This document shows positions 45,798 to 64,000 of a DNA stretch of 64,000 bases, piece by piece (the first letter of the stretch is position 1; every line of letters starts with the position of its first letter). The translations under genes were made by a program, and so were the position numbers. Below the pieces are notes generated by a model. The model was not told the origin of the DNA, did no database searches, and worked only from the letters and a program-made list of their open reading frames with translations. This DNA is from an uncultured Gemmatimonadales bacterium (GTDB lineage Bacteria; Gemmatimonadota; Gemmatimonadetes; Gemmatimonadales; Gemmatimonadaceae), in assembly GCA_963850905.1 (NCBI GenBank), contig CAWKMU010000003.1:2784001-2848000 (forward strand). Reading direction: 5' to 3'.

Positions 45798-46687
45798 CGG
45801 TCTCGTCGTCGACTGCTGTCGGTGGTGGTGCGGTGGATCCGGGAGTCGGTGGCGTGGAGGACGTCTCGTTGCACACCGCAGCCCGCATCGCGGAAGCCGC
45901 CCGTGTGGTGCGCGCCCGCTTTGCAGACACACCACGCGTCGCGCTGGTGCTTGGCACGGGCCTAGGCGGATTGGCCGACTCGATCGACGTAGAAACCAGG
46001 ATCGAGTATGGAGACATACCCGGGTTTCCGCTGTCGACCGTCGAAAGCCATAAGGGTCGCCTGCTGTGCGGCACATTGCGCGGCCGAACGGTCATCGCCA
46101 TGCAGGGTCGCTTCCACCGCTACGAGGGCTATTCCCTGCAACAAGTGACGTTTCCAGTGCGCGTGCTGCGCGCCCTGGGAGCCGAAATCCTGATCGTGTC
46201 GAACGCGTGCGGCGGCATGCGCGCGGACTGGGCGCCCGGAGACCTGATGCTGATCGGCGACCACATCAACCTTCTCGGCGACAACCCGCTGGTCGGGCGC
46301 AACGACGACAGCTTGGGTCCTCGCTTTCCGGACATGTCGGCGCCCTATGACGCCGAACTGCGGAGCCTCGCGCGCCGGGTAGCGGCCGATCAAGGCATTA
46401 CCGTGCGGGAGGGCGTCTACGTCGCCGTGACCGGTCCGAACCTCGAGACACGCGCCGAGTATCGCTGGCTGCGCGGAATGGGCGCGGATGTGGTCGGCAT
46501 GTCCACGGTGCCGGAAGTCATCGTGGCCGTCCACGGTGGGCTGCGCGTCTTGGGGATTTCGGTCATCACGGATCAGTGCGTCCCCGAGACGCTCGAGCCG
46601 GCATCGCTTGGCCGCATTCTCGCGGTGGCGGCTGCCGCCGAGCCACGCCTCACGGCGGTCGTCGCCGGGGTCGTGGAGCAGCTCTGA
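45794..46687 (+). CDS. Purine-nucleoside phosphorylase (trimeric type)
   Basis: [23 protein letters not shown] and VGMSTVPE motifs. Confidence 0.94.
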
Positions 46688-46706
46688 CGATAAGGGCGCC
46701 CACCTC

Positions 46707-49700: not shown

Positions 49701-49994
49701 TCTATTCAACGGCTGCGGAAGGATGCGGGGTTCGCCGTCAGTGACCGGATCCGGCTGCTCGTCGTCGGGGTGCCGGCTGTGGCCGCGGCGGCCACCACGC
49801 ACCGCGACTGGATCGCGCACGAGGTGCTGGCGCGCGAGGTGGTCATCAAGGAAGTGCCCCATCTCGATCCCGCGACCGGAACGGGGCCGAGCACGGGAAC
49901 GCAGGATCGGCTTCAGGGATTTGACGCGGTGCGCTCGCTCGACCTCGACGGACTGAGCGTGCGGATTGCCATCACCAGGGAAGTGGACTCATGA
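46707..49994 (+). CDS. ileS: Isoleucine--tRNA ligase, type 2 (IleRS2)
   Basis: EGPPTANGRPGIHH, GWDTHGLPVE, SRDRYWGTP, EGVDQTRGWFY, KMSKS; IleRS2-type C-terminus. Confidence 0.96.
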   Translation: MTAVAQETRRFRLLPADWPSLETEMLSRWEAEHLFVKSLEAAEGRPPFVFYEGPPTANGRPGIHHVFSRTLKDLVCRHRAMRGFYVPRKAGWDTHGLPVEIEVEKSLGITAKAQIEALGVARFNELCRENVWKYRSDWEQLSERIGYWLDYSSPYITYAATYIESVWWALATLWGRGLLYPGHKILPYCPRCETALSSHELALGYRDVQDPSIYVALDLIDAGRRILVWTTTPWTLVSNTALAVHPELEYVELRPRTGADRRTLILAEARVGAVLGPDHADAWETVRRMHGSELVGLRYHRPLDWVPYPPNGDHELIVGETFVTAEDGSGVVHMSPAFGADDYAAGQRHGLAFVQPVTNRGAFARTVPVVGDLFVKEADKAIIAELRKAGLLWRADRVEHAYPHCWRCGTPLLYYARSSWFVRTTAYRDAMLARNARVGWHPPETGAGRFGEWLAGNIDWAISRDRYWGTPLPVWVCDREATHVEVVDSFATLAERIGRPLPNDFDPHKPTVDGYHWPCRTCVASSETPGTMRRVGEVIDAWFDSGSMSFAQWHYPFENQERVARQYPADFICEGVDQTRGWFYSLLAIATGLGNALPHNEDGATAPYRNVIVNDLVLDAQGQKMSKSRGNAVDPWSVIQEHGADAIRFFLIEASQVWVPRRFDEQGIRDSAGRLLITLKNTYNGIFAQYANFGWSPSGQDPAIADRPALDRWILSRLAHVEREADDYLEHYEPTLAARVVRQFIDDDVSKWYVRLSRARFYDVEPADSRSAFATLHEVLTVMSRLLAPIMPFVTDWLHRELVGTSVHLAPYVRADAGAAIDDALESAMADIRRLATLGRAARETAKIKTRHPLSRLVCVVPRATGARLEGLQALAPLLQAELNVKRVEWLSSADSLVRLSGKANFRGLGKKFGNRTPEAARAVAQLTSDQLRAFEEGGQLVIRVGTDDRALDREDVIITHGAAGDLVVQEGDGYLAAIDPRVTPELAAEGLARELVSSIQRLRKDAGFAVSDRIRLLVVGVPAVAAAATTHRDWIAHEVLAREVVIKEVPHLDPATGTGPSTGTQDRLQGFDAVRSLDLDGLSVRIAITREVDS

Positions 49995-50438: not shown

Positions 50439-50960
50439 ATGAACGAAGCGGCAGAGTCATCGAAGCGGCGATTGTTTTGGATTGTGGCGGCCGCCATCGT
50501 AGTGGCTGACCTCGTCACGAAGGCGCTCGCCGTATCATCGCTGACGATGGGATTCCCGCATGACGTCGTCGGCTCAGTGGTGCGCCTGAATCTGGTGTAC
50601 AATCCCGGCGCCGCGTTTGGTATCAACTTCGGTCCGTCGTCGCGGTGGATCTTCCTCGCGCTCACGCTCGCGGCTCTGGGGATCCTCGTGCGCCTCTACC
50701 GGGCGACTCGCGCCGGCGATGTGGCGCGCACGTTGGCGGTGGCGCTCGTGGCAGGCGGAGCGGTCGGGAACCTCGTCGACCGGATTCGATCGGCCGTGGG
50801 CGTCGTCGATTTCATCGACATCGGTGTCGGCTTCCACCGCTGGCCCACGTTCAACGTCGCGGATATGGCCGTGACGACCGGGGCATTCCTGCTCGCGTGG
50901 GTGCTGTGGATGGAGGACCGCACGCGCGAGCGACACGTCGCGCCCGTCCCCGAGATGTAG
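50439..50960 (+). CDS. lspA: Lipoprotein signal peptidase
   Basis: NPGAAFG, GNLVDR, VVDFI and FNVAD motifs. Confidence 0.95.
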   Translation: MNEAAESSKRRLFWIVAAAIVVADLVTKALAVSSLTMGFPHDVVGSVVRLNLVYNPGAAFGINFGPSSRWIFLALTLAALGILVRLYRATRAGDVARTLAVALVAGGAVGNLVDRIRSAVGVVDFIDIGVGFHRWPTFNVADMAVTTGAFLLAWVLWMEDRTRERHVAPVPEM

Positions 50961-52000
50961 CTACGGGCGAACCGACGAGCGGACGCCAGATCGCATTCGA
51001 AGTTGCCCCAGACGCCAGCGACCGGCTCGACATGCTGGTGGCCGCCGCGGCGGGGATTTCCCGCACGCAGGCTGCTACGCTGATCGCAACCGACTGCGTT
51101 GCAGTCGAAGGGCGTCGCGAAAAGGCGAGCTACAGGCCCAAGCCAGGGGAGCACATCACGGTCGGCATCCCCGTTGCCCGCGAGCGCACGCTCGTCCCGG
51201 AATCGATTCCCCTCCGCATCGTGTACGAGGATGGCGATCTCCTGGTCGTCGACAAAGCGGCGGGCATGGTCGTGCACCCCGCTCCTGGCCATTGGAGCGG
51301 CACGCTGGTCAACGCGCTTCTGGGCCGGCAGGACGAAACGGCCAACTCCGACGCAATCGATCCGAACGAGCCGCCGAGTGGTTCGATCGCGCGCGCCGGC
51401 CTCATTCATCGGTTGGACAAGGACACCTCAGGTCTCTTACTCGTCGCGAAGACGGAACGAGCGCACCGGCGACTGAGCTCGGCCATGGCCGAGCGACAGA
51501 TCCGACGACGATACGCGGTACTGGTGTGCGGACACCTCCGCGACGACCGGCTCACCATCGAGCAGCCGATCGATCGGGATCCCCGAGACCGAAAGCGGAT
51601 GGCGATCGTCAGTACGGGACGGCCGGCACGGACGGATTTCGTGCGGCTGGCACGATTCGATTCGGTTGACTTGTTGCGCGCTCGGCTACTCACGGGCAGG
51701 ACGCACCAGATCCGTGTACACCTGGCGTCGGCGGGGCACCCGGTCGTGGGTGATGATACGTACGGTGGCGGCGGGGGACGGCGCTTCGTAGGGCTACCGC
51801 CGCGACGGCACTTCCTGCACGCGGCGTGGCTGCTGTTTCGTCACCCGTTGACGGGGGAGCCGATGGACCTGCGGTCGCCGCTGCCAAGTGACCTCGAGAC
51901 GTCGCTGGCTAGTGTCGCAGGGCAGCCTGGAGCGGACGACAGCCGGATTTGGAAGGGGGATGGTCTTGAGGAATGGGGCTTCTACCGAGCCGACGACTGA
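50957..52000 (+). CDS. rluD: RluA/RluD-family pseudouridine synthase
   Basis: S4-like RLD..SRTQ, GMVVHP, HRLDKDTSG, TGRTHQIRVH; start unclear. Confidence 0.9.
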   Translation, partial: VATGEPTSGRQIAFEVAPDASDRLDMLVAAAAGISRTQAATLIATDCVAVEGRREKASYRPKPGEHITVGIPVARERTLVPESIPLRIVYEDGDLLVVDKAAGMVVHPAPGHWSGTLVNALLGRQDETANSDAIDPNEPPSGSIARAGLIHRLDKDTSGLLLVAKTERAHRRLSSAMAERQIRRRYAVLVCGHLRDDRLTIEQPIDRDPRDRKRMAIVSTGRPARTDFVRLARFDSVDLLRARLLTGRTHQIRVHLASAGHPVVGDDTYGGGGGRRFVGLPPRRHFLHAAWLLFRHPLTGEPMDLRSPLPSDLETSLASVAGQPGADDSRIWKGDGLEEWGFYRADD

Positions 52001-52541
52001 CGCGTCCCCGGACGCCGCGGGCGTCGCCGGAGATCAGGAAAATGCGGAGCAGGGTGGAGGAGCACTCCACGCCCTGGGCAACTCAGCCGATGCCCCGCGC
52101 TTGCTCGTGTTCACGGCTGCGGGTCGAACGTGCGCGTGCGAGTTGACCGCGGTTCGGGAGATCATCCCGCATCGGCGGGCGACGCGACTGCCTGGTGCGC
52201 CGTCGTTCGCCGTGGGGCTGATCAATCTCCGAGGATCCATCGTCACGGTACTGGATCTCGGTATTCGACTTGGTGGGCGCGCTGTGGATGTGGAGCGCGG
52301 CTCGATCGTCCTCGTGGACCACGGTTCGAGAGTGGTGGGTTTGGCCGTCGACGAATTGCGTGACGTCCAGCGCGTGTGGCGATCGTCGATCGAACCGGCC
52401 GACGCTGAGGCCGAGCAAGAGGGATTCGTGCGTGGGATGTTGAGGGCAGCGGGCGAGGTCGCCGCGCTGTTGGACGTGAGCCGCATCGTCGCTGATGCCC
52501 TGGGGTCGGCGACGTACCGCCAGCATAACAGCCTGGAGTGA
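51960..52541 (+). CDS. cheW: Chemotaxis coupling protein CheW
   Basis: VREII..TRLPGAP..GLINLRGSIVTVLDL, GLAVD. Confidence 0.92.
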   Translation: MVLRNGASTEPTTDASPDAAGVAGDQENAEQGGGALHALGNSADAPRLLVFTAAGRTCACELTAVREIIPHRRATRLPGAPSFAVGLINLRGSIVTVLDLGIRLGGRAVDVERGSIVLVDHGSRVVGLAVDELRDVQRVWRSSIEPADAEAEQEGFVRGMLRAAGEVAALLDVSRIVADALGSATYRQHNSLE

Positions 52542-52543
52542 TC

Positions 52544-52906
52544 GTGAGCCATTCAGTCCTCATCTGTGACGATGCCATTTTCATGCGGACCATGGTGGGT
52601 GATATCCTGCAGCAGGCGGGATTCGACATCGTGGGCGAGGCCGAGACGGGTCTGCAGGCGGTCGAGAAGTACAAGCAGCTTCGCCCGGACCTCGTCACTA
52701 TGGACATCGTCATGCCCGACATGGGCGGGATCGATGCCGTCCGGGAGATCACGAAGTTCGATCCCCAAGCCAAGATCCTGATGTGCAGCGCGATGGGACA
52801 GCAGGCGCTCGTCGTCGAGGCCATCCAGGCGGGCGCGCGGGATTTTGTCGTGAAGCCCTTCCAGCCCAGTCGCGTGCTGGAAGCGGTTCAGCGCGTGCTC
52901 GGCTAG
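52544..52906 (+). CDS. cheY: Response regulator CheY
   Basis: ICDDAIFMR, MDIVMP, CSAMGQQ, VKPF (Bacillus/Thermotoga-like CheY). Confidence 0.93.
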   Translation: MSHSVLICDDAIFMRTMVGDILQQAGFDIVGEAETGLQAVEKYKQLRPDLVTMDIVMPDMGGIDAVREITKFDPQAKILMCSAMGQQALVVEAIQAGARDFVVKPFQPSRVLEAVQRVLG

Positions 52907-53003: not shown

Positions 53004-55118
53004 ATGGACGCAGCGCAATACGCCGATCTCTTCCTGACCGAGAGTCGTGAGCACCTCTCGGCCATCAATCTCGCCCTACTCGATATCGAGCGTGGGCTGA
53101 CTGCCAACCCGCCCGCCGGTGACGCGGTCGCGGCGGGCTCCGGGTCCGAAGGCGGTGGAAGCAGCGAGGGCATCGCCGCCGCCGTGGCATCGCTGTTCCG
53201 GGCCGTTCACACCATCAAGGGAATGAGCGCGACGCTGCGCTACGACGCAGTGGCTGCTCTGTCGCACGAGCTCGAAGCCCTTCTCGACCGGCTGCGGCGT
53301 GGAGAGCTCGCGCCCGACGCGAACCTGATGAATATCCTGTTCGCTGCCGCGGATCTGCTCGAAGCATCGATCGAGCGAGCCGTGGCGGGCCAGCCAGATG
53401 ACGCGCGTCTCGAAGAAGTTGTTGGTCGCATTCGACGGGCGGCGGCCGCGCGGCACGAACCAGTGAACGGTCGCGCCGCGCCTGGGCGCAAGACGTCTCG
53501 TGCGAAGCGCGCGCCGCCCGCTCGTCGATCACGAGCGGGCGCCAGAGGTGCCTCGCGAGGAAAGGCCACGAGGCAGCGGGTGCGCCCCGCCGTGCCGCGA
53601 GACGATGCCGCAGGCGGAGCCGAGACGATCGTACGGGTCCACCTGGCCGCCGCAGCGACGTTCCGCGCGGCGCGGGCTGCCGTGGCCGTGCAACGCGCGC
53701 GGGCGCTGGGGGACGTGCTCGGCGTGAGCCCCGTGCTGGAGACCGTGCCAGCGGATGGTCCTGGGCCGGAGGTGATCGAGATCCGTCTGCGCACGCAGGC
53801 GAAGACGGCGGCCATCGTCGGGCAGATCGAGGGGGCAGGGGACGTCGCGCGCGTCGAGGTGCGTCGCGATCGAGTCCGCGGGGGTACGCGACCCGGCCGC
53901 CATTCCGGAGCCGCCCGGCACTCTGCCAACGGCAACGGCGACAGCGGCGCCGATGGCATCGCGCGAACGCGACACGTGCGAATCGATCTGCGACGGTTGG
54001 ACGCGCTCATGGACTTGATCGGCGAGTTGGTCATCGCACGTGGCCGCCTCGTCGAGCTCACGAGCACCGAGGAAGAGTCCGCGCTGAGCGAGGCGGTCGC
54101 CGATGCCAGTCGGTTGATCGGAGACCTGCAGCAGGAGATCATGACCTGCCGGATGGTGCCCGTCTGGCAGGTCTTCGATCGATTCCCTCGCCTGGTACGC
54201 GACACCGCCCAGGTGCTCGGGAAGCAGGTCAGTTTCGAAGTCGAGGGCAAGGACATCGAGCTCGATCGGTCGATGCTCGACGAGATCGGGGATCCGATAG
54301 TCCACCTGCTGCGGAATGCGTTGGATCATGGAATCGAGCTGCCGGACACGCGGGTTGCCGCCGGTAAGCCGCCTCAGGGCCACTTGACGCTGAGCGCTGC
54401 ACGCGACCGATCTGCCGTGCTGATCCGGGTCACGGACGATGGGCGTGGGATCGACCGAAACAAGGTGCTCGTACGTGCGCTCGAGTCTGGGCTCGTGGAC
54501 CCTGGGACGACCGCACTCAGTGACGACGAAGTGATCCGGCTGATCGCGCGCCCGGGCTTCACGACGGCCGAAGAGGTGACAGATGTGTCGGGTCGGGGCG
54601 TCGGCATTGACGCGGTCCAGGCCAGGGTTCGGGCGTTGGGTGGCTCCATCGACATCAAGAGTGCGGCCGGTGAGGGGACCACGGTGACCGCGCGGCTGCC
54701 GCTCACCCTTGCCATCATGCGGGCGCTGCTCGCCCGGGTCGGACGAGAGGCTTATGCCTTTCCCATGGCCCACGTCGACGAAACGGTTGGTACGGAAGGG
54801 GCAAACTATGCGGCCGTGCGCGGTCGCCCAGTGATCGTGATCCGAGGGGAGGCAATCCCCTTCGTGAGGTTGCGTGATCTGGTCGGACTCGAGCCGGCCT
54901 CGAGCCCGGTGCCGACCCCCGATCCCGAGCAGCATGTCATTGTCGTCGAGTCGGGTGGCCATCGGGCCGCAGTCGCGGTCGACGAGCTGATGGGGCAGGC
55001 CGACATCGTCGTGAAGCAGTACGACCATGTGCGCGGCGGTGCGGCGTTGTTCAGCGGAGCCACAGTCCTCGGGGACGGAGCACCCGCCTTGATCGTCAAT
55101 GTGAGCAGCCTTTTCTAG
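53004..55118 (+). CDS. cheA: Chemotaxis histidine kinase CheA
   Basis: Hpt FRAVHTIKG, HLLRNALDHG, DDGRG, SGRGVG, C-terminal CheW domain. Confidence 0.95.
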   Translation: MDAAQYADLFLTESREHLSAINLALLDIERGLTANPPAGDAVAAGSGSEGGGSSEGIAAAVASLFRAVHTIKGMSATLRYDAVAALSHELEALLDRLRRGELAPDANLMNILFAAADLLEASIERAVAGQPDDARLEEVVGRIRRAAAARHEPVNGRAAPGRKTSRAKRAPPARRSRAGARGASRGKATRQRVRPAVPRDDAAGGAETIVRVHLAAAATFRAARAAVAVQRARALGDVLGVSPVLETVPADGPGPEVIEIRLRTQAKTAAIVGQIEGAGDVARVEVRRDRVRGGTRPGRHSGAARHSANGNGDSGADGIARTRHVRIDLRRLDALMDLIGELVIARGRLVELTSTEEESALSEAVADASRLIGDLQQEIMTCRMVPVWQVFDRFPRLVRDTAQVLGKQVSFEVEGKDIELDRSMLDEIGDPIVHLLRNALDHGIELPDTRVAAGKPPQGHLTLSAARDRSAVLIRVTDDGRGIDRNKVLVRALESGLVDPGTTALSDDEVIRLIARPGFTTAEEVTDVSGRGVGIDAVQARVRALGGSIDIKSAAGEGTTVTARLPLTLAIMRALLARVGREAYAFPMAHVDETVGTEGANYAAVRGRPVIVIRGEAIPFVRLRDLVGLEPASSPVPTPDPEQHVIVVESGGHRAAVAVDELMGQADIVVKQYDHVRGGAALFSGATVLGDGAPALIVNVSSLF

Positions 55119-55142: not shown

Positions 55143-55763
55143 ATGGATGACATTCGATCGCTGAAGGCGCACCAACTCGATGCCCTCCGGGAAGTTGCTA
55201 ACATCGGCGCGGGTCACGCGGCGACCGCCCTGTCGCAGATGACCGGCGGCACGATCATGATCAGCGTGCCGACGATCAACATCGCGCGCCTCGAGGACGT
55301 GCCGCCCCAGATCTCGGGCCCCGAAGAGCCGGTCGCGGCCGTGCTGATGAACATGCTCGGTGACCTGACCGGACGGACGTTGCTGGTATTCCCGCACCCG
55401 ACCGCGGTGCGACTGTCGGAGATCATGCTGAGCCGGCCGCGCGGGGGAGATTTCGAGCTGGGCGAGATCGAGCAGTCGGCGATCAAAGAGGCGGGCAACA
55501 TCCTGAGCGGCGCCTACCTCAACGCGCTCAGTGAGTTCATGGGCCTGATGCTCCTCCCGTCACCCCCGAGTCTCGCCGTGGATATGTCGAGCGCGGTGTT
55601 GACGACGGCGTACCTGCAGTTTGGGACGGATCGCGACTACGTGTTTTGCGTCGAGACGGAGTTCTTCATGCAGGAGCTGAAGGAGCGCTTGCGCGGCTTC
55701 TTCCTGCTGCTGCCTGACGTCGCCTCGCTCCACGCGATCCTGCGCGCCGTCCGCGTCGCCTGA
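55143..55763 (+). CDS. cheC: CheY-P phosphatase CheC
   Basis: DALREVANIGAGHAATALS and SAIKEAGNIL (two ExxN motifs). Confidence 0.93.
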   Translation: MDDIRSLKAHQLDALREVANIGAGHAATALSQMTGGTIMISVPTINIARLEDVPPQISGPEEPVAAVLMNMLGDLTGRTLLVFPHPTAVRLSEIMLSRPRGGDFELGEIEQSAIKEAGNILSGAYLNALSEFMGLMLLPSPPSLAVDMSSAVLTTAYLQFGTDRDYVFCVETEFFMQELKERLRGFFLLLPDVASLHAILRAVRVA

Positions 55764-55784: not shown

Positions 55785-58556
55785 GTGACCGCAACGCGTC
55801 CGAACAACCTGCTCTCTGAACGGGACCGCGAGGTCCTGCGGTCGTTCGCACGGCGCATCGATCCCTCGGACGCCGGCGCGCACAACAACCTCGGAGTCCT
55901 CTACTACCACAAGGGTCTGTACGAGGAGGCCGTCGCCGCGTTCACGCGAGCGCTCGAGCTGGACTCCAAGATGCGCGTGGCGCAGCGCAATCTGGAGATC
56001 GCGTACTTCAGCACCGGCTACTACGATCGTCGCGTCGCGACGCTGCGCGACCGTCTGCGTGCCGCGCCGGAGGACCGGGACGCCCGGTGGGAGTTGGGCC
56101 GCGCGTACAGCCTCCTTGGCCGGTTCGCCGAATCCACCGCTGAATTCGTCGAGCTACTCAAGCACCATCCCAACGATCTCGGCGCCCTCGTCCAGTTGGG
56201 CCTGGCCGAAAAATCGTCGGGTGACCTCGAGCAAGCCCAGACCTGGTTCGAGCGGGCACTCGCGTTGGATCCCGAAAGTCCCGTCATTCTCTTTTACATC
56301 GGCGAGGTCCTGTACAATCGTGGGTTGAACGACGAGGCGTTGGTCGCACTCGAACGCGCCATTGCGGCGCATCCTGACAACCCCGATGCGCACTACCTGA
56401 TGGGCTTCGTGCTGGGCGACATGGGTCGTCACGAGGACGCTCGTCAGGCAACCAAGCGCGCCGTGCAGCTCAACCCGGCGTTGTCGAGAGCGCAGACCAA
56501 TCTGTCGCTCGACGAGTCGGCCCTCGCCAAACCGGCACCCGCGTCCGAAGCGACGAATCGGCTGGCAGAAGCCGCGATGACCGTGGCCGACGAGGGCGCG
56601 CTCGCGCATTTCAACCTCGGACTCGCCTTTCGGCAAAAGGGCTATTACGCCGAAGCGTTGCATGAATACGAGCTCGCGCTCACACGCGGGGAGGAGCGGG
56701 GCCTCGTCCAACAGGCAATCGCCGAAGTGCACCTGCTCCGACGGGATGTCACCGGCGCCGTGGCGGGGTACGACCTGCTCCTCGTCGACCATCCGACGAG
56801 TCCGAAACTGTGGAACGAGCGCGGTGTGGCCCTCCACCAGGATGGCCGCTACGAAGAGGCCGCACACAGCTACCGGCGCGCCATCGACTGCGACGCGCAC
56901 TACGCGATCGCCCACAACAATCTCGGTGTGGCGCGCTATCACGCGGGTGAGCCGGATGCCGCGGCGGAATCATTCGGCGCTGCCTTGCAACTGGTGCCCG
57001 GGTTCGCGCACGCGCGGTTGAACCTCGCACTCCTGCACTTCAAGGCAAAAAGGCTCCCGGCGAGCTTGGAGTCGTACCGCCGGGTGCTGGCCGACGAGCC
57101 CGAAAATGCCGCGGGATGGAATGGAGTCGGGCTGGTCCTGACGGAGCTGCGTCGGTTCGACGAGGCGCGCAATGCTTTTGCGCGTGCGGTACAGAGCAAA
57201 CCCGGGTACGCGGAGGCCCGCTACAACCTGAGTTTTGCGCTGTCGAACCTCGGCGAGTTCGATGCGGCCCTTCGCGAGACGAAACGCGCGATTGAGCTCG
57301 ATCCCTACTACGTGCCGCAAAAATTCGAGCTGGCGATCGACTTCCAGTATGAGCATCCCGAGCTCTCGATCGTGCCGGATCTGGGGGGCGCCGCCCGCGC
57401 CGACGAGCATGCCATCGCCGATTTCGCGTTCGATCCGTCGCTCCTCGACTCGCTCTTCACCACGCTGACCCCGGCGGCTGGCGTCGAAGCGGTGCAGCCC
57501 CTCGGTCCCGACCCGTACGGCATTGCGCTCGACTACCTGTCGAAAGGGATGTACGAGCGGGCGACAGCCGAGGTCAGTCGCGCGCTGCTCCGCGGAGCCG
57601 ATCGCGCGAGCGGCATGACGATCCTCGGGGACTTGTTCCAGCGCCAGGGCCTCCATGGCGAGGCGTTGGATCGATACCGCGACGCGCGGCGGACGAATCC
57701 GGGTGCCGCTCGAGCGCTGGCCGGCGAAATTCGCGCGCTCGTCGCGCTCGGACGTGGCGCGGACGCTCGATCCGCCGCCGATGAGCTCCTGCACGTGGCC
57801 CCGAACGATACCGATGCACTGCTGGCCGTCGCGGCCGCACGGGCGAGTGGCGGAGATCCCACCGGCGCCCTCGCGTTGCTCGAGACCGCGAAGGGCCTCG
57901 CCCCAGAGCGGGCCGACGTGCTGCACGCTGTCGGTGATGTGAGCCGGGACGCCGGCGACACGGGGAACGCCGTCGCCGCTTATCGTGCCGCACTGGTCCT
58001 CGACCCCGAACGCGCGGTCATCCGTTACGAGTTGGCACGGCTGCTCGCCGCGACCGCCAACGTGGCTGAGGCGGAAGCAGAGCTCCTCGCGGCACTGGAA
58101 CAGGTCCCCACGTACGCACATGCCACGCTGGCACTGGCCGATCTGTGGCGCACCTCCGGTCGCACCGCCGAGGCGATCGACCTGCTGGTCGGGCTGCTCG
58201 AGCGCGACCGGTCGCACGTCGATGGGCTGTTGGTCTTGGGAGAACTGCTGTTCGATGCCGGGCGCCGGCGCGACGCCGCCCGCGTGTTTGCCAGGCTCCT
58301 CGTGGTCGATCCAGCGCATCCCGGCGCGCTGTATTACGGCGGCGCGCTCCTCGCGGATCAGCACCGCTATCGAGAGGCGATTGAGCGCTGGGATGCCGTG
58401 ATCGCCACGCAGCCGGACGGGCTGTTTGGCCAACGCGCGCGCCGGGATCGACGAACCGCGAGAGACCTCGCACACATCTTCGTGCGCCGCCAAGAGACGC
58501 AGGGCGGTGGGCTGGGCGCGGTGCAGGCGGAACTCGCGTTCGGGAGGGCCAGCTAG
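55785..58556 (+). CDS. Large cytoplasmic TPR-repeat protein (923 aa)
   Basis: Many AHNNLG/AHFNLG/ARYNL-type TPR units; no signal peptide. Confidence 0.9.
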   Translation: MTATRPNNLLSERDREVLRSFARRIDPSDAGAHNNLGVLYYHKGLYEEAVAAFTRALELDSKMRVAQRNLEIAYFSTGYYDRRVATLRDRLRAAPEDRDARWELGRAYSLLGRFAESTAEFVELLKHHPNDLGALVQLGLAEKSSGDLEQAQTWFERALALDPESPVILFYIGEVLYNRGLNDEALVALERAIAAHPDNPDAHYLMGFVLGDMGRHEDARQATKRAVQLNPALSRAQTNLSLDESALAKPAPASEATNRLAEAAMTVADEGALAHFNLGLAFRQKGYYAEALHEYELALTRGEERGLVQQAIAEVHLLRRDVTGAVAGYDLLLVDHPTSPKLWNERGVALHQDGRYEEAAHSYRRAIDCDAHYAIAHNNLGVARYHAGEPDAAAESFGAALQLVPGFAHARLNLALLHFKAKRLPASLESYRRVLADEPENAAGWNGVGLVLTELRRFDEARNAFARAVQSKPGYAEARYNLSFALSNLGEFDAALRETKRAIELDPYYVPQKFELAIDFQYEHPELSIVPDLGGAARADEHAIADFAFDPSLLDSLFTTLTPAAGVEAVQPLGPDPYGIALDYLSKGMYERATAEVSRALLRGADRASGMTILGDLFQRQGLHGEALDRYRDARRTNPGAARALAGEIRALVALGRGADARSAADELLHVAPNDTDALLAVAAARASGGDPTGALALLETAKGLAPERADVLHAVGDVSRDAGDTGNAVAAYRAALVLDPERAVIRYELARLLAATANVAEAEAELLAALEQVPTYAHATLALADLWRTSGRTAEAIDLLVGLLERDRSHVDGLLVLGELLFDAGRRRDAARVFARLLVVDPAHPGALYYGGALLADQHRYREAIERWDAVIATQPDGLFGQRARRDRRTARDLAHIFVRRQETQGGGLGAVQAELAFGRAS

Positions 58557-59710
58557 TGCCGATTGAAGGCGCCCTTCGCGAGCTGAGTATCCATGATGTG
58601 TTCCAGCTGCTGGACCTGAGCCGGAAGACGGGTGCGCTGCGGGTGACGTCGGAGCTGCGTGACAACGAGGGCATCGTGCTCTTCGATCGCGGGCGGATCG
58701 TCTCGGCGACGGTGCGCAGCAGCCCGCACCCGCTCGGCTCCATGCTCGTGCGGGCAGGCCGGATCAGTGAAGCAGAGCTCGCGCACGCGCACCAGCTGCA
58801 AGCGGAGGGCGACCCCCGGCGCCTCGGCGAGATCCTCTTGGCGATGGGCGCGATCGGCGCCCGAGAGCTGGAGCGCCAGGTGCGGCTTCAGATGGAGACC
58901 GTCGTCTTCGAGCTCATGTCGTGGCGGGACGGGTTCTTCTCCTTCGAGGAACGCGACGTCAGCGACGCCGTGGTGGAAGCCCCCGTCCATGTCTCGACGG
59001 AATCGCTCCTGATGGAAGGAGCTCGGCGCATTGACGAGTGGTCGCGCATGGCCGACCGCATCCCGACGCTCGATGTGGTGCCCGTCCTCGCCGCCGTACA
59101 GGAGGACCACGCCACGTTACTGGACTTGCTCCCCAGCGAATGGGAAGTGCTGGCGGCGATCGATGGGACGAGCGACCTCCGGGGAATCGCGGGCTCGCTC
59201 GGACGCAGCGAATTCAATGTGGCGAGAGTCGTCTACGGCTTGCTGTCGACCGGCGTGGTTGCGCTCGATCCTCGCGCCATGAACGGGCGGACCCCGACCG
59301 GCGTGCCGCTCGCGGCCGACCCGGAGTCCACGCTGGCAGCTGCGCGTCACGCACTGGCCGCAGGCGTTCCGGAGGAGGCGCTCCATGGCGCTCGTCAGAT
59401 CATTGGTCTCGATCCTTCCCGGGTCGAGGCCCGCCTTCTGGCGGCCCGTGCGCTGCGGCGACTCAGACGATTCGGGGATGCAGCGGAGGAGATCCGACGC
59501 GCGTTGGAGTTGGCTCCCGACCATCCTGGCCTGTGTCTCGAGCAAGGCTTCGCTGCATTGAGCCGCGGTGACTTCCACGGTGCCGCGACAAGCTGGGAGC
59601 GCTACCTCCGGCTCACGCCGGCCAGTGCGCCTGACGCGGACGGGGTGCGCGAGGCGGTGGCATCGGCATCCTACCTGCGCGGCTTCCTGGAGGCATATAC
59701 CGGTGGCTGA
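58556..59710 (+). CDS. DUF4388 (PATAN-like) domain protein with C-terminal TPR
   Basis: IEGALRELSIHDVFQLL..SRKTG.L, W.DG.F.F, LLMEGARRIDEW, then a wHTH-like region and TPR. Confidence 0.88.
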   Translation: MPIEGALRELSIHDVFQLLDLSRKTGALRVTSELRDNEGIVLFDRGRIVSATVRSSPHPLGSMLVRAGRISEAELAHAHQLQAEGDPRRLGEILLAMGAIGARELERQVRLQMETVVFELMSWRDGFFSFEERDVSDAVVEAPVHVSTESLLMEGARRIDEWSRMADRIPTLDVVPVLAAVQEDHATLLDLLPSEWEVLAAIDGTSDLRGIAGSLGRSEFNVARVVYGLLSTGVVALDPRAMNGRTPTGVPLAADPESTLAAARHALAAGVPEEALHGARQIIGLDPSRVEARLLAARALRRLRRFGDAAEEIRRALELAPDHPGLCLEQGFAALSRGDFHGAATSWERYLRLTPASAPDADGVREAVASASYLRGFLEAYTGG

Positions 59711-60662
59711 CGACATCGAGCGTTGGAGCGAGGAGCTCGCCCGAGACCCGGGCAGCGGTGTGTTCATTCCTCTCGCGGATGCGCTGCGCCGTCGCGGGCA
59801 ACTCGATCTGGCCTTTCGCGTCGCGACCCGCGGATTGGCGCGACGGCCCTATGACGGAGATGCACACGACCTGCTCGCTCGCATCTGGGCGGATCGCGGC
59901 GATGGCGAACGCGCCATGGATGAGTGGGGCATCGCCCTGCAGTGTGCGCCGGCCCATGCCGGTGCGCTCAAGGGCATGGGCTTCGCGTGCTATCAAGCGG
60001 GTCGACTGGCCGATGCTGAGCGCTATCTCGTGGAGGCAGCCGCGATCGACCCCGACGACGTCAGCATTCGCACGGCACTCGCTCGCGTCCGTCACCTAGC
60101 ACCGCGGGTACAGCCGGCGGGAGCGGAGGGCGAGGTTCGCCGCAATGGCGCGGATCATCCTGTCCCGATCGCGTCGACCGAAGTCGCGCCCATGGCGCGG
60201 ATTGAGAAAGCAGCCAGCACGCTGGAGCGTCGCGCGCCCGGCCGCCGCATCGATCCCCGACTCGTTTTCGCGGAACAGCTCGATCCGGCTGATCAAGCGG
60301 CACTCCTGGTCGACGCGGACGGTCTCGTGCTGGCGGGGAGCTACGTCGTGGCCGATGGTCGGGATGTCGCGCAGGAGGTAGGTGCGGCGTTGAGCGGCGT
60401 GAGCGATGAGGCGCGGCGCGCGATGCGCCACCTCGGGCTCGGAGCGTGGAGCTCCCTGGTCTTCGAGGCGGAGGCCGCGACGGTCGGCATGGCCCCGGTC
60501 GCGGTTGGCGCCGCCGAGGCATCCGGTGATGCAACGGACGGTGTGGCATTCGTGGCGGCGGGCCCGTCGGTACCGCTTGGGCTGGTACGCCGGCTGTTGG
60601 CGCGCGTCGGTACGTGCGCCCAGGAATGGCTCAGACACGACGGCGCGGGAGCGGATCGATGA
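59703..60662 (+). CDS. TPR plus Roadblock/LC7 fusion protein
   Basis: N-terminal DPGS.VF..LADALRRRG TPR; C-terminal ALLVDADGLVL..LG.W..L..E Roadblock-like. Confidence 0.8.
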   Translation: MADDIERWSEELARDPGSGVFIPLADALRRRGQLDLAFRVATRGLARRPYDGDAHDLLARIWADRGDGERAMDEWGIALQCAPAHAGALKGMGFACYQAGRLADAERYLVEAAAIDPDDVSIRTALARVRHLAPRVQPAGAEGEVRRNGADHPVPIASTEVAPMARIEKAASTLERRAPGRRIDPRLVFAEQLDPADQAALLVDADGLVLAGSYVVADGRDVAQEVGAALSGVSDEARRAMRHLGLGAWSSLVFEAEAATVGMAPVAVGAAEASGDATDGVAFVAAGPSVPLGLVRRLLARVGTCAQEWLRHDGAGADR

Positions 60663-61006
60663 GCTCTCCCTTCATCGATCTGCTGCTCGGGCTTGCGAGG
60701 CATCGGGGCGTGCAGGGCGGCCTAATCGTCAGCGAACGCGATGGAATTGTGGTGGACGCCCACGTCCAGATTGGCGTGCGCACGAGCGTCGTCGCGGCGC
60801 TGGCGGCGTCGATCTATCGCAGGGCACGACAGTCCGCTGGCGCCGCGGGGCTCGGCGCGGTGACGTACCTCGAGCTCGTCGCGGCGAGTGGGAGACTCTG
60901 TATGGCCGGGCGCGACGATCTGGTGATCGTCGTGATCACCGACGCTCGGGCAACGGCCGGTCTCCTGCGGACGGCTGTCCTTCGCGCCTGCGAGACGCTG
61001 GCGTGA
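60659..61006 (+). CDS. Roadblock/LC7 (MglB/MglC-like) protein
   Basis: GVQGGLIVSERDGIVV..VAALAAS..GLG..LE. Confidence 0.82.
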   Translation: MSSPFIDLLLGLARHRGVQGGLIVSERDGIVVDAHVQIGVRTSVVAALAASIYRRARQSAGAAGLGAVTYLELVAASGRLCMAGRDDLVIVVITDARATAGLLRTAVLRACETLA

Positions 61007-61473
61007 CGACGGCCGTCGTCGAGAAGTGGATTGAAGGCCCGCTGCGGCAATTCGTCGAGGATGCGCATGTGTTGCTCGCCCTCATCCTGACGCCAAGTGG
61101 CCAGGTCCTGGCGCAACACGGGTTCTCCCGGGCCGTCGACGTCATGTCGGCCTGCGCGCTCGCCGCGGCGATTCATGCGTCGGGCGGCGAGCTGGGTCGT
61201 CAATTACAGGGGCGGCCGTTTGGCGGGTTGCACCATTCCGGTACGGCGCGGCAGTTGTTCCTCGCGGCAGCCGAGACGCGGCGGGGTCTCTTGCTGTGCC
61301 TCACGGTGTTTGACGAGGCGACGTCGTTTGGCCTCGTGCAGCTGTACTTCGATGAGTTGCGGATGCACCTGGCTGACGCCGCGCCCGTATCAGAGACGCT
61401 GCCACCCGCCGTCCTGGCCGAGACCTTCGAGCAGGATCTCGACCGCAATCTCGCTCTCCTCTTTCGCCGATAA
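61003..61473 (+). CDS. mglB: MglB-like Roadblock protein (probable GAP)
   Basis: L..SGQVLAQHG, A.ALAAA, F..L.H.G, VFD..TSFGLV, C-terminal helix DLD.NL..LF; immediately upstream of mglA. Confidence 0.78.
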   Translation: MTTAVVEKWIEGPLRQFVEDAHVLLALILTPSGQVLAQHGFSRAVDVMSACALAAAIHASGGELGRQLQGRPFGGLHHSGTARQLFLAAAETRRGLLLCLTVFDEATSFGLVQLYFDELRMHLADAAPVSETLPPAVLAETFEQDLDRNLALLFRR

Positions 61474-61477
61474 GCCC

Positions 61478-62125
61478 GTGCCGCTCGTCAACTACGCCAC
61501 GCGCGAGATCACGTGCAAGATCGTCTACTACGGCCCGGGGCGGTCGGGGAAGACGACCAACTTGCACTACATCTACGGCCAGGTTCCGACCGATCGCAAA
61601 GGGCGCATGGTATCGCTCGCGACCCAGACGGACCGCACGTTGTTCTTCGATTTTCTCCCCCTCGATCTCGGCACGATCTCTGGTTTCACGACCAAGATCC
61701 AACTCTATACTGTCCCGGGCCAGGTGTACTACCAGACGACACGCAAGCTCGTGCTCCAGGGCGCGGACGGCGTGGTGTTCGTGGCGGACAGTCAGGCGCG
61801 CCAGCTCGAGGAGAACATCGAAAGCCTGCAGGACTTGCACGCGAACCTGGCGGAGCACGGCATGGACGCGCGGGTCGTGCCGCTGGTGCTGCAGTACAAC
61901 AAGCAGAATCTCCCCGCTGACCTCATCCTCGACGTCGCGGCACTCGACGATGCGCTCAACTTTCGGAACGTGCCGTCGTTCCCGGCCGATGCGCTGCACG
62001 GACCGGGCGTATTCGAGACGCTGCGCGGCATTTCCGAGCTCGTCCTGAAACGATTGAGTGGTCCGGGCCGGCCCGTCGGAGCCGGTAGAAGCTCGTCACC
62101 GGCGGCCGCCGGCACGCGGCGCTAG
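61478..62125 (+). CDS. mglA: MglA-family small Ras-like GTPase
   Basis: KIVYYGPGRSGKTTNL, TDRTLFFDF, YTVPGQ, GADGVVFVADS; G4 reads NKQN. Confidence 0.95.
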   Translation: MPLVNYATREITCKIVYYGPGRSGKTTNLHYIYGQVPTDRKGRMVSLATQTDRTLFFDFLPLDLGTISGFTTKIQLYTVPGQVYYQTTRKLVLQGADGVVFVADSQARQLEENIESLQDLHANLAEHGMDARVVPLVLQYNKQNLPADLILDVAALDDALNFRNVPSFPADALHGPGVFETLRGISELVLKRLSGPGRPVGAGRSSSPAAAGTRR

Positions 62126-62138
62126 CGGAGGGACGTCG

Positions 62139-64000
62139 GTGCAGCTGGACGAGCGATATCGCTTCGACAACTTCGTCGTTGGCTCTGCCAACCGGCTGGC
62201 GGCAGCTGCCGCTCGAGCTGTGGCCGAAGCCCCGGGCACGACCTACAACCCGCTCGTGATCTACGGGGCGACGGGCCTCGGGAAGACGCACCTGCTAGGC
62301 GCCATCGGCAGCCACGCCGCCAGCCTCCAGCCCGGCTTGCATGTGGACGCACTCGCGCTGGACGAGTTTGTGCGTCAGCTCCACGCGGCCGTATCGGTGG
62401 GCGAGGTCGATGCTTTTCGACAGCGGTATGCGCACGCCGACATGCTCCTGATCGACGATATCCAGTTCCTCACGGGCCGGCGGGAGACACAGACGGAGTT
62501 GCTGCGGTTGTGCCAGTCGCTGCAAGACAGCGGACGCCAGATCGTATTGACCAGCGACCGCCCGCCCACCGAGATCACGGATGTGGACGATCGCCTCGTC
62601 GCACGGCTGGCGGGTGGTCTGGTCGTCGACATCGGAGTCCCGGACTATGAGACGCGGGCTGCAATGCTCGCGACCTGGTGCCAGGAGCGGAGCGTGCAAT
62701 GCGGGCCCGGTGTCATCGAGGAGTTGGCGCGCCTCGATCTGCGCAACATTCGTGAGCTGCAGGGCGCGCTGACTCGCGTTGTCGCATACCAGACTCTCGG
62801 GCCCAATGGACGAACGATCGAGGTCAGTGACGTGCGTCGGTTGTTCGCGGCCCAGTCCGAGCGGCGTCGCACGGACACACGAGGGACCGGTGAGCCGCGC
62901 ACGCCATCCGCCAATGGTGCCGCGCCGGAAGCGGGTGAATACCTGAATTTCCTGTCCGACATGGCCAGCGCGGTCGCCCAGCATGTCGAGCCGTGGCGCA
63001 TGCAGCTCGCCGAGGCAGCGGCGTACTGGGCGGGCGAGGGGTATCGACCGGCAATCCTCGAGCGCGCGCTGCACGCGAGTGTGGACCCTGGAAGCGAAAG
63101 CGTGCTCAATGCCTACGTCGCGACGATTGAGCGCCTGCGCGCGCTCGAGACGGAGGTCCTGCAGATCGACCCGTCCGTGGCGGGCACTGACGTCTTCCGG
63201 GATCCGGAGCGTGTCGCCGAAGCCGAGGGATTGTTGACCCGTGTGCGCGCCGGCACCACTCCGCCTTCGGGGCCATCGACCGAGTTCACCCGTCGTGGCT
63301 TTGCGGTGGGCAACTCCAATGAGCTGGCGGTGCGTGCCGCGGATGCGGTCGTGTCGGAACCGGGCCGCCGGTTCAATCCGCTCTTCGTCCACGGACCGAG
63401 TGGCGTCGGCAAAACGCATCTCCTCAATGCGATCGGCAACGGGCTCGTGGCCGCACGACAGGGTCGCAGTGTCGTGGCGTGCGTGGGCGCCCAATTACTC
63501 ATCGATGAGCTGATCGATGCGCTGCGAGAGGGACAGGTAGAACGGTGGCGGCGCCGCTACCGGGCCACGGATGCACTGCTCATCGACGACGTCCATTTCC
63601 TGGCAGGGAAGGAGCGGACGCAAGAGGAGTTCTTTCACGTCTTCAATGACCTGTACGCCGCCGGCAAGCAGATCGTGCTGACGAGCGATCGCCCGCCGCA
63701 AGCGCTGGCGGAGCTCGAGGGACGACTCCAGTCACGGTTCGCGGGAGGTCTCGTGGCGGAAATCCAACCGCCGGACCACGACCTGAGAGAGAAGCTCTTT
63801 ACCCACTACCTCAGGACCACGACCGCCGGCCGTGACACTGCACTGGCCGAGTACCTCGCCGCGCAACCCGTTGCGAATGCGCGTGAGATCCTCGGAGTGG
63901 TCAATCGCCTGGCCGCCGCCGCGGAGATGGCGGCCGTGTCGCTCACCCTCGATTTCGCTCGGACCCAGCTGGAAGCCGGAGGAACCGCGGACCCGACGCC
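62139..64000 (+). CDS. DnaA/Hda-family protein with two tandem AAA+ modules (3'-truncated by the window)
   Basis: Manual translation from GTG 62139 (GGAGGG RBS): YRFDNFVVGSANRLA..NPLVIYGATGLGKTHLL..LLIDDIQFL; second module NPLFVHGPSGVGKTHLL..LLIDDVHFLAGKERTQEEFFH; open to the end; absent from the ORF track. Confidence 0.92.
   Translation, partial: MQLDERYRFDNFVVGSANRLAAAAARAVAEAPGTTYNPLVIYGATGLGKTHLLGAIGSHAASLQPGLHVDALALDEFVRQLHAAVSVGEVDAFRQRYAHADMLLIDDIQFLTGRRETQTELLRLCQSLQDSGRQIVLTSDRPPTEITDVDDRLVARLAGGLVVDIGVPDYETRAAMLATWCQERSVQCGPGVIEELARLDLRNIRELQGALTRVVAYQTLGPNGRTIEVSDVRRLFAAQSERRRTDTRGTGEPRTPSANGAAPEAGEYLNFLSDMASAVAQHVEPWRMQLAEAAAYWAGEGYRPAILERALHASVDPGSESVLNAYVATIERLRALETEVLQIDPSVAGTDVFRDPERVAEAEGLLTRVRAGTTPPSGPSTEFTRRGFAVGNSNELAVRAADAVVSEPGRRFNPLFVHGPSGVGKTHLLNAIGNGLVAARQGRSVVACVGAQLLIDELIDALREGQVERWRRRYRATDALLIDDVHFLAGKERTQEEFFHVFNDLYAAGKQIVLTSDRPPQALAELEGRLQSRFAGGLVAEIQPPDHDLREKLFTHYLRTTTAGRDTALAEYLAAQPVANAREILGVVNRLAAAAEMAAVSLTLDFARTQLEAGGTADPT

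Follow-up and report, generated by a model that had tools for sequence, protein, structure and literature searches.

The DnaA2x locus

The 64,000-nt stretch of Gemmatimonadales DNA analyzed here (G000:C3:2784001-2848000, referred to as the window) ends within a gene, which we call DnaA2x, whose product carries two DnaA-type AAA+ modules in a single chain and which stands among chemotaxis (Che), MglA and PATAN-TPR genes. DnaA2x is a non-initiator paralogue of DnaA, and the evidence described below leans towards a role in polarity signalling. The gene occupies 62139..64000 on the forward strand of the window and G000:C3:2846139-2848112 in full, and it encodes a protein of 657 amino acids (aa). 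An earlier reading of the window, made from its sequence alone, had described an open reading frame (ORF) of at least 620 codons running off the end; the frame is indeed open from 62139 to 64000 (620 codons), and its stop lies 37 codons beyond the window end.

The GTG at 62139 is the likely start codon, since a Shine-Dalgarno sequence (GGAGGG, 62127-62132) lies 6-7 nt ahead of it and the closest homologues have the same first residue and the same length (657 aa). An alternative start at GTG 62058 is unlikely, as it overlaps the end of mglA.

When DnaA2x was compared with Pfam, Bac_DnaA (PF00308) matched twice (E 9.7e-110), and Bac_DnaA_C (PF08299, domain IV) and DnaA_N (PF11638, domain I) were absent among 18 Pfam families at E <= 0.01. 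In the same scan, no other DNA-binding domain was found either. The N-terminus of the protein corresponds to the first residues of domain III, and only 45 residues follow the second module; the 37 of them that lie after base 64000 contain no helix-turn-helix (HTH). These results bear out the sequence-only reading, which had proposed a covalent pair of DnaA-type domain III modules devoid of domains I and IV.

Module 1 (62139..62858 (+), residues 1-240) and module 2 (63270..63974 (+), residues 378-612) each consist of DnaA domain III and lid. The Walker A motifs were found exactly where they had been placed before, G43-T50 at 62265-62288 and G419-T426 at 63393-63416, and every Walker B, box VII and sensor II string that had been quoted is present in the protein. 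The corresponding residues are K49, D106/D107, R152/R156 and R205 in module 1, and K425, D483/D484, R529/R533 and R582 in module 2. The intervening region, previously put at about 140 residues, measures about 135. It begins with a variable segment (62859..62930 (+), approximately residues 241-264) that differs in length across the alignment and is predicted with low confidence (pLDDT <50 at 249-267), followed by a short helix, which we call motif A (62931..62984 (+), residues 265-282, core E267-x3-F271-L-x-D) and which is retained in the mini-proteins described below. A family-specific helical domain (62985..63254 (+), residues 283-372, pLDDT 87-97) completes the region. A disordered C-terminal tail starts at 63975..64000 (+), and motif B (residues 639-657) lies just beyond the window end. 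Motif B is of the type EKxVWxWPxxxxRxIEExR-COOH, with W645 in 56/59 and E654 in 52/59 members of the family.

AlphaFold2 prediction of DnaA2x with a 59-row alignment gave a mean pLDDT of 88.2 and a pTM of 0.53, with low-confidence stretches at residues 249-267 and 615-637. The modules matched solved DnaA domain III structures in Foldseek (8bv3_A: TMt 0.94, root-mean-square deviation (rmsd) 1.4 A, 43% identity; further matches to 8btg, 2z4r, 3r8f and 2hcb). Tandem AAA+ proteins of the classical clade (p97/NSF/Rix7) were returned with E near 1e-13 but with TM of 0.24-0.29 and an rmsd of ~27 A, and both DnaA2x modules are of the DnaA type. Folded alone, the inter-module domain was predicted as a helical bundle (pLDDT 85.7), the first helix of which, motif A, had a pLDDT of 57-63. 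It matched no Pfam family and no Foldseek pdb entry at E <= 0.001 (best E 3), and a wide VIA-align search gave generic helical proteins at best (Z 5.7, rmsd 10 A). As far as the model goes, these fold searches indicate neither a known nor a new fold.

DnaA2x is not the replication initiator

The sole other DnaA-like match in the genome was found at C3:999922-1000617 (44% identity). At this place, approximately 1.0 Mb on C3, the genome encodes a canonical DnaA of 475 aa with DnaA_N, Bac_DnaA and Bac_DnaA_C (8.3e-26), followed by dnaN (DNA_pol3_beta E 1.7e-31); the pair lies 1.8 Mb from DnaA2x. Since a canonical dnaA-dnaN pair exists elsewhere, DnaA2x is not the initiator. The sequence-only reading had named, as the outcome that would speak against it, a domain IV past base 64000 in a genome with no other dnaA; a tail of 37 residues without HTH is found there instead, and dnaA is present. 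The assembly is 82% complete, which affects neither the presence of dnaA nor the absence of domain IV past base 64000. DnaA2x also lacks a dnaA-dnaN neighbourhood, being flanked by mglA and PATAN-TPR.

Family models gave a picture that is easily misread. DnaA2x scored 504.4 bits against the NCBIfam DnaA equivalog TIGR00362 (cut-off 343.9), but the bits add up from two partial matches that cover only profile positions 103-330 of 437, and they do not demonstrate equivalence. The Hda and HdaA models stayed below their cut-offs (TIGR03420, 156.6 vs 194.8; NF005982, 56.8 vs 268; NF006571, 55.1 vs 297; NF051883, 43.8 vs 300), and so did the IstB/DnaC-type models (NF038214, 109.3 vs 200; DnaC NF005931, 35.6 vs 357). 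Because DnaA2x passes the equivalog cut-off and several sources name it 'chromosomal replication initiator protein', Gemmatimonadales genomes can seem to hold two dnaA genes. This is an annotation trap, and dnaA counts for these genomes should leave DnaA2x out.

Distribution and origin of the family

A word-index search with DnaA2x returned thousands of DnaA-like matches, the best 120 of which were all 629-711 aa long, covered 100% of the query and were 55-94% identical to it. Where these 120 were named, they were Gemmatimonadaceae proteins called 'DnaA/Hda family protein' or 'DnaA ATPase domain-containing protein'. An exhaustive search of representatives extended the full-length single-stretch matches down to 31% identity; for ten such matches that were looked up, the cluster members with a taxon in their name were all Gemmatimonadales.

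A genome search with the whole protein was abandoned, as the E-value alone failed to part DnaA2x from canonical DnaA, and a linker query was used instead. Since canonical DnaA also matches the whole protein, the inter-module domain (residues 262-378) was taken as the family marker, and absence means that a genome of the 201-genome sample had no match to this query. The marker was present in 134/201 sampled genomes of the phylum, nearly all of them from the order to which the window belongs and its nearest families, with a single match per positive genome in all but two. By group, it was found in 27/38 genomes of the window's own family (f1), 94/96 of f2, 3/3 of f3, 3/4 of f4, 1/1 of f5, 3/3 of f8 and 2/23 of f7, and in 0/11 of f6, 0/2 of f9 and 0/19 of f10-f12; the tallies include the genomes G057, G097, G157 and G182, which are flagged as unpublished. 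As the architecture recurs in so many genomes, the duplication is no misassembly, a concern that had been raised with the original description. DnaA2x is thus a conserved family and not a misassembly or a pseudogene.

Two further searches contributed little to this picture. A locus search of genome contigs kept 80 loci, among which only L003, L004 and L037 held family members; the remainder were canonical DnaA genes of other phyla, caught via the pattern QEEFFHVF, and 12 of these served as outgroups only. A protein atlas search with linker residues 255-380 gave no usable match. In L004, an 88%-identical relative on a contig of a metagenome-assembled genome (CAWDVJ010000013.1), the cluster genes align in short frame-shifting pieces, which looks like assembly indel errors rather than real pseudogenes.

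The origin of the modules was examined with a domain III tree of 84 sequences (32 of module 1, 32 of module 2, 8 Gemmatimonadota DnaA and 12 DnaA of other phyla), obtained by a quick LG+G4 search with SH-aLRT support; the outgroup contains many Patescibacteria and is of odd composition. Module 1 formed one clade (support 99) and module 2 another (96), the two were sisters (95), and jointly they were sister to Gemmatimonadota DnaA (84). The simplest history suggested by this tree is that a single copy of the resident DnaA domain III was duplicated internally before the family diversified. Within this genome, module 1 is 44% and module 2 is 42% identical to DnaA, and the modules are 39% identical to each other. 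The earlier statement that module 1 is the more diverged is borne out neither by overall identity nor by stem length (0.28 vs 0.29). It is correct for DnaA-specific residues, since module 2 has preserved the equivalents of the H/B-motif and AID-1 and module 1 has not.

The two ATP sites differ in conservation

Conservation was mapped on the 59-member alignment with the residue numbering of E. coli K-12 DnaA. Among the reference positions are R227 (AID-1) and R334 (sensor II). In the same protein, V211 and R245 bind single-stranded DNA (ssDNA) and R285 is the arginine finger, the three residues being used for ssDNA binding and protomer contacts (PMC5716108). The results showed that the Walker A Lys and the first Walker B Asp were present in 59/59 members in module 1 as well as in module 2, and the sensor II Arg in 56/59 in each (R205 in module 1). 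At the V211 position, module 1 had His in 35/59 and module 2 Ile in 36/59, and at the R245 position, Glu was found in 44/59 and Arg in 42/59, respectively. The R227 equivalent was variable in module 1 and Arg in 47/59 in module 2, and the arginine finger (R285) was Arg in 41/59 and 54/59, respectively.

A wider sample consisted of 97 two-module members (50%-identity representatives and locus proteins), 9 of the 106 rows having been dropped because each was without one of three regions. In module 1, the Lys (K49) was present in 96/97, the Asp (D106) in 97/97 and the arginine finger in 71/97; in module 2, the respective counts were 78/97, 82/97 and 80/97. At the sensor II position, module 2 had neither Arg nor Lys in 33/97 members, and some short forms lack the whole lid. 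Of the 19 members in which module 2 has lost the P-loop Lys, 17 still had the module 2 finger. This pattern of conservation suggests that the working nucleotide site is that of module 1 and that module 2 has been kept largely as a finger donor. Shortened forms of approximately 590-600 aa, from which the lid and sensor II of module 2 are gone and in which motif B is kept, were seen at L110, L111 and L113 and among the representatives P0131, P0133 and P0134.

DnaA2x is embedded in a Che/MglA/PATAN-TPR cluster

The order mglA - DnaA2x - PATAN-TPR inside a Che cluster is conserved. Among 37 other genomes with the locus, mglA lies directly 5' of DnaA2x in 34, which bears out the link to MglA drawn from the window alone; the exceptions are two loci of group f7 (L108 and L109) and L037, where the contig is cut. 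PATAN-TPR lies directly 3' of DnaA2x in 36/37, the one exception (L124) being cut by the contig end. In many genomes, stop and start codons overlap at both DnaA2x junctions. In most 18-kb loci of relatives, CheA/CheC are found upstream and CheR/CheB downstream, but not in the two f7 loci. All conserved neighbours of DnaA2x are signalling or polarity genes, and none is a replication gene.

In the window, mglA (61478-62125 (+), 215 aa, a GTG start assigned from the DNA) ends 13 nt before DnaA2x, and its product matches MglA of M. xanthus (5ymx_A, E 2.9e-71) and T. thermophilus (3t12_A, E 2.3e-64) over the full length. On the other side, the start of the downstream PATAN-TPR gene (L119:204-1844 = G000:C3:2848103-2849743, 546 aa) overlaps the DnaA2x stop. 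The helical insert of its PATAN domain (residues 60-112) scored 55.5 bits, against a cut-off of 38, with NF053729, the NCBIfam 'cyclic di-GMP-binding domain, MshE-related' (cyclic di-GMP is abbreviated c-di-GMP below).

The Che part of the cluster opens with genes for CheW (51888-52541 (+)), CheY (52538-52906 (+)), CheA (53004-55118 (+)) and CheC/CheX (55143-55763 (+)), all assigned by Pfam. They are followed by a large TPR protein of 923 aa (55785-58556 (+), Pfam TPR families), which occupies the same place in relatives, and by an upstream PATAN (DUF4388)-TPR protein of 384 aa (58556-59710 (+), Pfam DUF4388 E 2.4e-30 and TPR), in which a similar RLGxxL...Q repeat was noticed by eye. Next comes a fusion of TPR and Roadblock (~59706-60662 (+), Pfam TPR families and Robl_LC7 E 1.7e-5), the start of which is approximate: GTG 59706 is the probable one, as the alignment with homologues sets in near residue 46 of the long ORF. 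A second Roadblock/LC7 protein of 115 aa (60659-61006 (+), Pfam Robl_LC7 E 6.3e-7) and an MglB-like Roadblock/LC7 protein of 156 aa (61003-61473 (+)) precede mglA. The latter matches the MglB structure 6h5b_B (E 8.5e-7) and falls below the cut-off with Pfam Robl_LC7 (E 0.0035).

Beyond the downstream PATAN-TPR gene lie CheR, CheB, CheW and a peptidase-like gene, and then the dcw genes rsmH, ftsI and murE. The dcw genes (L119:9370-14101) are a few kb past the cluster, as they are in the relatives L104, L106 and L120-L123. At the upstream end, the cluster is bordered by housekeeping genes for a class I aminoacyl-tRNA synthetase of 1168 aa (46488-49994) and a pseudouridine synthase (50645-52000).

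Most sampled Gemmatimonadales genomes, including that of the window, contain two MglA-like matches. The MglA of the operon is ~62-90% identical to that of the window and the second copy, located elsewhere, ~51-64%; genomes without the cluster have only the second, distant copy. In group f7, DnaA2x and PATAN-TPR form a pair with no mglA or Che genes adjacent (L108:3962-5971 (-) and L109:7556-9559 (-); also P0161 and P0191), the Walker A of module 2 in the f7 DnaA2x is degenerate and the lid region there is altered, and an MglA-like gene of ~55% identity lies elsewhere in the f7 genomes.

Mini-proteins retain two motifs that are predicted to dock on PATAN-TPR

Four genomes of the window's own family that have an operon-type mglA (E ~1e-85 to 1e-95) and no DnaA2x were fetched (G036, G047, G114 and G168). 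In 4/4, an ORF of 69-73 aa stands between mglA and PATAN-TPR in place of DnaA2x (L120:7927-8148 (+), L123:8824-9042 (-), L122:8694-8912 (-) and L121:7778-7987 (+)). When these mini-proteins were aligned with DnaA2x, only motif A (EFxxF[LMV]x[DE] and then a short helix, corresponding to DnaA2x residues 265-282) and the C-terminal motif B (...[IV]xxW[PD]xxxxRxIEExR, residues 639-657) were found to be retained. Both motifs contribute to the best-conserved non-ATPase positions of DnaA2x, among which are E267, F271, E639, K640, W645, P646 and E654, with E267 and F271 conserved in at least 90%. Two mini-proteins compared with Pfam matched no family.

When the PATAN-TPR proteins were placed in a quick tree, those of the reduced forms fell into a clade of three (99) and, separately, G114 as sister to the protein of the window's genome (96). 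As these are two separate places, both nested among full-length forms, reduction to a mini-protein occurred at least twice. The PATAN-TPR proteins of the reduced lineages have lost the last two TPRs (~70-110 residues) and are 430-477 aa long, compared with 538-573 aa. This suggests that the TPRs that disappeared had served the AAA+ part, which is likewise gone, and that the retained TPRs serve the motifs, the two events being too few for statistics. The c-di-GMP-type insertion of the PATAN domain is lost in the clade of three and kept in G114. In G114, the mini-ORF and the PATAN-TPR start are separated by a short tandem repeat (L121:7988-8092), one frame of which encodes MRDAS five times and which breaks the usual stop/start overlap.

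We performed a complex prediction with the PATAN-TPR protein of G036 (430 aa, 21 rows) and its own mini-protein (73 aa, 32 rows including DnaA2x). The ipSAE was 0.86 (0.85, 0.87 and 0.86 in individual runs), and three controls gave 0.42, 0.00 and 0.01; the ipSAE mark is reached by 116/157 solved complexes and 2/215 mismatched pairs. At least 80% of contacts were the same from run to run, and the pLDDT of the partner was at least 58. In the predicted interface, mini-protein residues 17-25 (motif A) and 55-73 (motif B) face TPR residues 230-411. We infer from this model that the downstream PATAN-TPR protein probably receives motifs A and B in its TPR groove. Judged by gene order, by co-loss and by the predicted complex, this protein and not MglA is the tightest partner of DnaA2x.

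Discussion

The reading that we prefer, and which we place slightly on the probable side, is that DnaA2x is the ATP-switch subunit of a Che/MglA/PATAN-TPR polarity-signalling module, docked on a scaffold that resembles a c-di-GMP sensor, with the nucleotide site in module 1 and the finger in module 2. In such a system, motifs A and B would anchor DnaA2x to the downstream PATAN-TPR protein by sitting in its TPR groove, and nucleotide would be bound in module 1, to which module 2 would supply its box VII arginine finger in trans. The two modules may then behave as one internal dimer of the DnaA-DnaA kind, the ATP or ADP state of which could change the shape or the assembly of the scaffold. An ATP switch would thereby be added to the inputs from GTP (MglA), c-di-GMP (PATAN) and phosphorylation and methylation (Che). 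The gene context and the predicted docking onto PATAN-TPR fit the earlier suggestion of a repurposed signalling ATPase or scaffold.

Several observations weigh against this reading. The module 2 finger is missing in 16/97 members and the module 1 finger is kept in 71/97, so that a head-to-tail polymer or other geometries are possible, and the pTM of 0.53 means that the domains are predicted confidently but that the mutual placement of the modules is not fixed by the model. The complex was modelled for the G036 mini-protein and not for DnaA2x of the window, to which the docking is carried over by motif conservation. Since custom alignments were used, the calibration counts hold roughly, and since TPR-peptide complexes are common among solved structures, the docking score may partly reflect likeness to them. 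The sister relationship to Gemmatimonadota DnaA has a support of only 84 in a quick LG+G4 tree. DnaA2x is absent or reduced to a mini-protein in some lineages that retain DnaA; as the gene is dispensable there, its role is accessory. Finally, module 2 of most members keeps the equivalents of V211, R245 and the AID-1 residue R227, and a role that involves neither DNA nor DnaA gives no reason for their retention.

The last point bears on an alternative to which we assign a low but appreciable probability, namely, that DnaA2x, held by a polarity scaffold, pairs with domain III of canonical DnaA through the DnaA-type AAA+ interface and thereby regulates initiation. It would do so by capping DnaA oligomers, or by stimulating or blocking ATP hydrolysis as Hda does, and the chemosensory, GTPase or c-di-GMP state would consequently gate replication initiation. 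The modules are derived from Gemmatimonadota DnaA and are still 44% and 42% identical to domain III of the genome's own DnaA, module 2 keeps the finger (54/59), the AID-1 R227 equivalent (47/59) and the H/B-motif equivalents (36/59 and 42/59), and the cluster stands beside the dcw division genes in several genomes. However, the score with the Hda model remained under its cut-off (156.6, cut-off 194.8), the N-terminus is not conserved and no conserved motif of the clamp-binding type was seen in it, DnaA2x is lost or replaced by a mini-protein in lineages that retain DnaA, and the conserved neighbours include signalling and polarity genes but no replication gene. The specific version in which module 2 engages domain III of canonical DnaA, so that the chemosensory, MglA-GTP and c-di-GMP state of the pole gates replication, we regard as rather improbable. 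Information could also flow in reverse, with the polarity module reading out the DnaA-ATP state of the cell. Gemmatimonadota include members that divide by budding.

It is similarly improbable that DnaA2x is a scaffold independent of ATPase activity, in which nucleotide is bound structurally or not at all and the partners are bridged by the motifs and the helical domain. The mini-proteins are natural deletions of both modules in which motifs A and B survive, module 2 is often without P-loop or lid, and the sensor I and arginine-finger positions vary in distant members. Nevertheless, the module 1 Lys (96/97) and Asp (97/97) are near-invariant although the family diverges to ~30% identity, and sensor II R205 is kept in 56/59; this conservation of the Walker residues and R205 is hard to explain without a nucleotide-dependent function.

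We give still less weight to a DNA-binding polar tether, in which module 2 or both modules would use the initiator-specific helices to bind DNA, single-stranded or duplex, and link the nucleoid to a polar complex. Both modules contain the helices that lie between Walker A and Walker B, and module 2 has the equivalent of V211 in 36/59 members and that of R245 in 42/59, but module 1 has His (35/59) and Glu (44/59) at these positions, distant members have deletions in the helix region of both modules, and the Pfam scan revealed neither a domain IV nor any other DNA-binding domain. That DnaA2x is an artefact, a pseudogene or a second initiator, for instance of another replicon, can practically be dismissed, even though the TIGR00362 score (504.4 vs 343.9) and the 'chromosomal replication initiator protein' labels might favour the last of these. 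The score comes from profile positions 103-330 only, there is no HTH domain, the frame is intact and conserved, and 134/201 genomes have the gene, with a single match in all but two, in a signalling context that is fixed.

The domain III of DnaA is known as the motor that opens the origin, and the domain III of Hda is known to regulate it. In DnaA2x, a doubled domain III without the DNA-binding parts is fixed in a chemotaxis/small-GTPase/c-di-GMP polarity cluster across an abundant and little-studied soil phylum, which suggests that the initiator motor has been reused as a signalling switch. If the preferred reading of DnaA2x as the ATP switch of this cluster is true, an AAA+ protein of the initiator clade has been recruited to signalling. 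The TPR groove and the two short motifs provide a handle on an undescribed multi-input polarity system. A possible link between polarity signalling and replication in these bacteria also becomes testable. Among the open-access papers searched, we found none that links a DnaA-like ATPase to MglA or describes a double-DnaA protein. New here are the reduction to mini-proteins, the two predicted docking motifs with their complex model, the residue map of the modules and the module tree.

Comparison with known systems

Compared with DnaA, each module of DnaA2x is a complete domain III with lid, with Walker A, Walker B, box VII and sensor II in place, a fold that matches B. subtilis domain III at an rmsd of 1.4 A and 42-44% identity to the genome's own DnaA. 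DnaA2x differs from DnaA in having two modules in one chain, in lacking domains I, II and IV and a dnaN neighbour, and in that module 1 is without the H/B-motif and AID-1 equivalents; it also has its own helical domain, two predicted docking motifs and a location in a Che/MglA cluster. Like DnaA2x, Hda/HdaA is a domain III paralogue without a DNA-binding domain. The arginine finger of Hda acts in trans on the ATP of another protomer, and Hda carries an N-terminal clamp-binding motif. Hda is a single module, whereas DnaA2x is double and its modules branch with Gemmatimonadota DnaA, and no conserved Hda-like N-terminal motif of the clamp-binding type was seen in the 32- and 59-member alignments of DnaA2x.

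With the Frz, MglA/MglB and SgmX system of M. xanthus, the cluster shares MglA, an MglB-like Roadblock protein, TPR proteins and Che genes. In M. xanthus, MglA binds the TPR protein SgmX (PMC11580455). No DnaA-like ATPase has been described in that system, and here a single run of genes encodes all the parts, including a second PATAN-TPR protein and additional Roadblock proteins. The genes for MglA and MglB are sometimes encoded near PATAN genes, and the passages of the same survey that mention Gemmatimonadetes MglA note PATAN neighbours and never DnaA (PMC4316618). The PATAN domain with a helical insertion is shared with the PATAN adaptors, including the cyanobacterial response regulators of the PatA type. 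Judging by the title of a preprint, PATAN regulators reportedly bind the type IV pilus motor. Compared with the PatA type, the PATAN domain is here fused to TPRs and not to a receiver domain, and the predicted partner is a DnaA-type ATPase that would dock via the TPR part and not the PATAN part.

The predicted docking itself resembles that of TPR-peptide systems. TPR domains hold C-terminal acidic peptides, as Hop does with the EEVD tail of Hsp70/Hsp90, and the likeness lies in the C-terminal ...IEExR-COOH motif that is predicted to sit in the TPR groove. In comparison with the Hop type, motif B is longer and has an invariant core of the Trp-x-Trp-Pro type, and the helix of motif A is predicted to lie alongside it.

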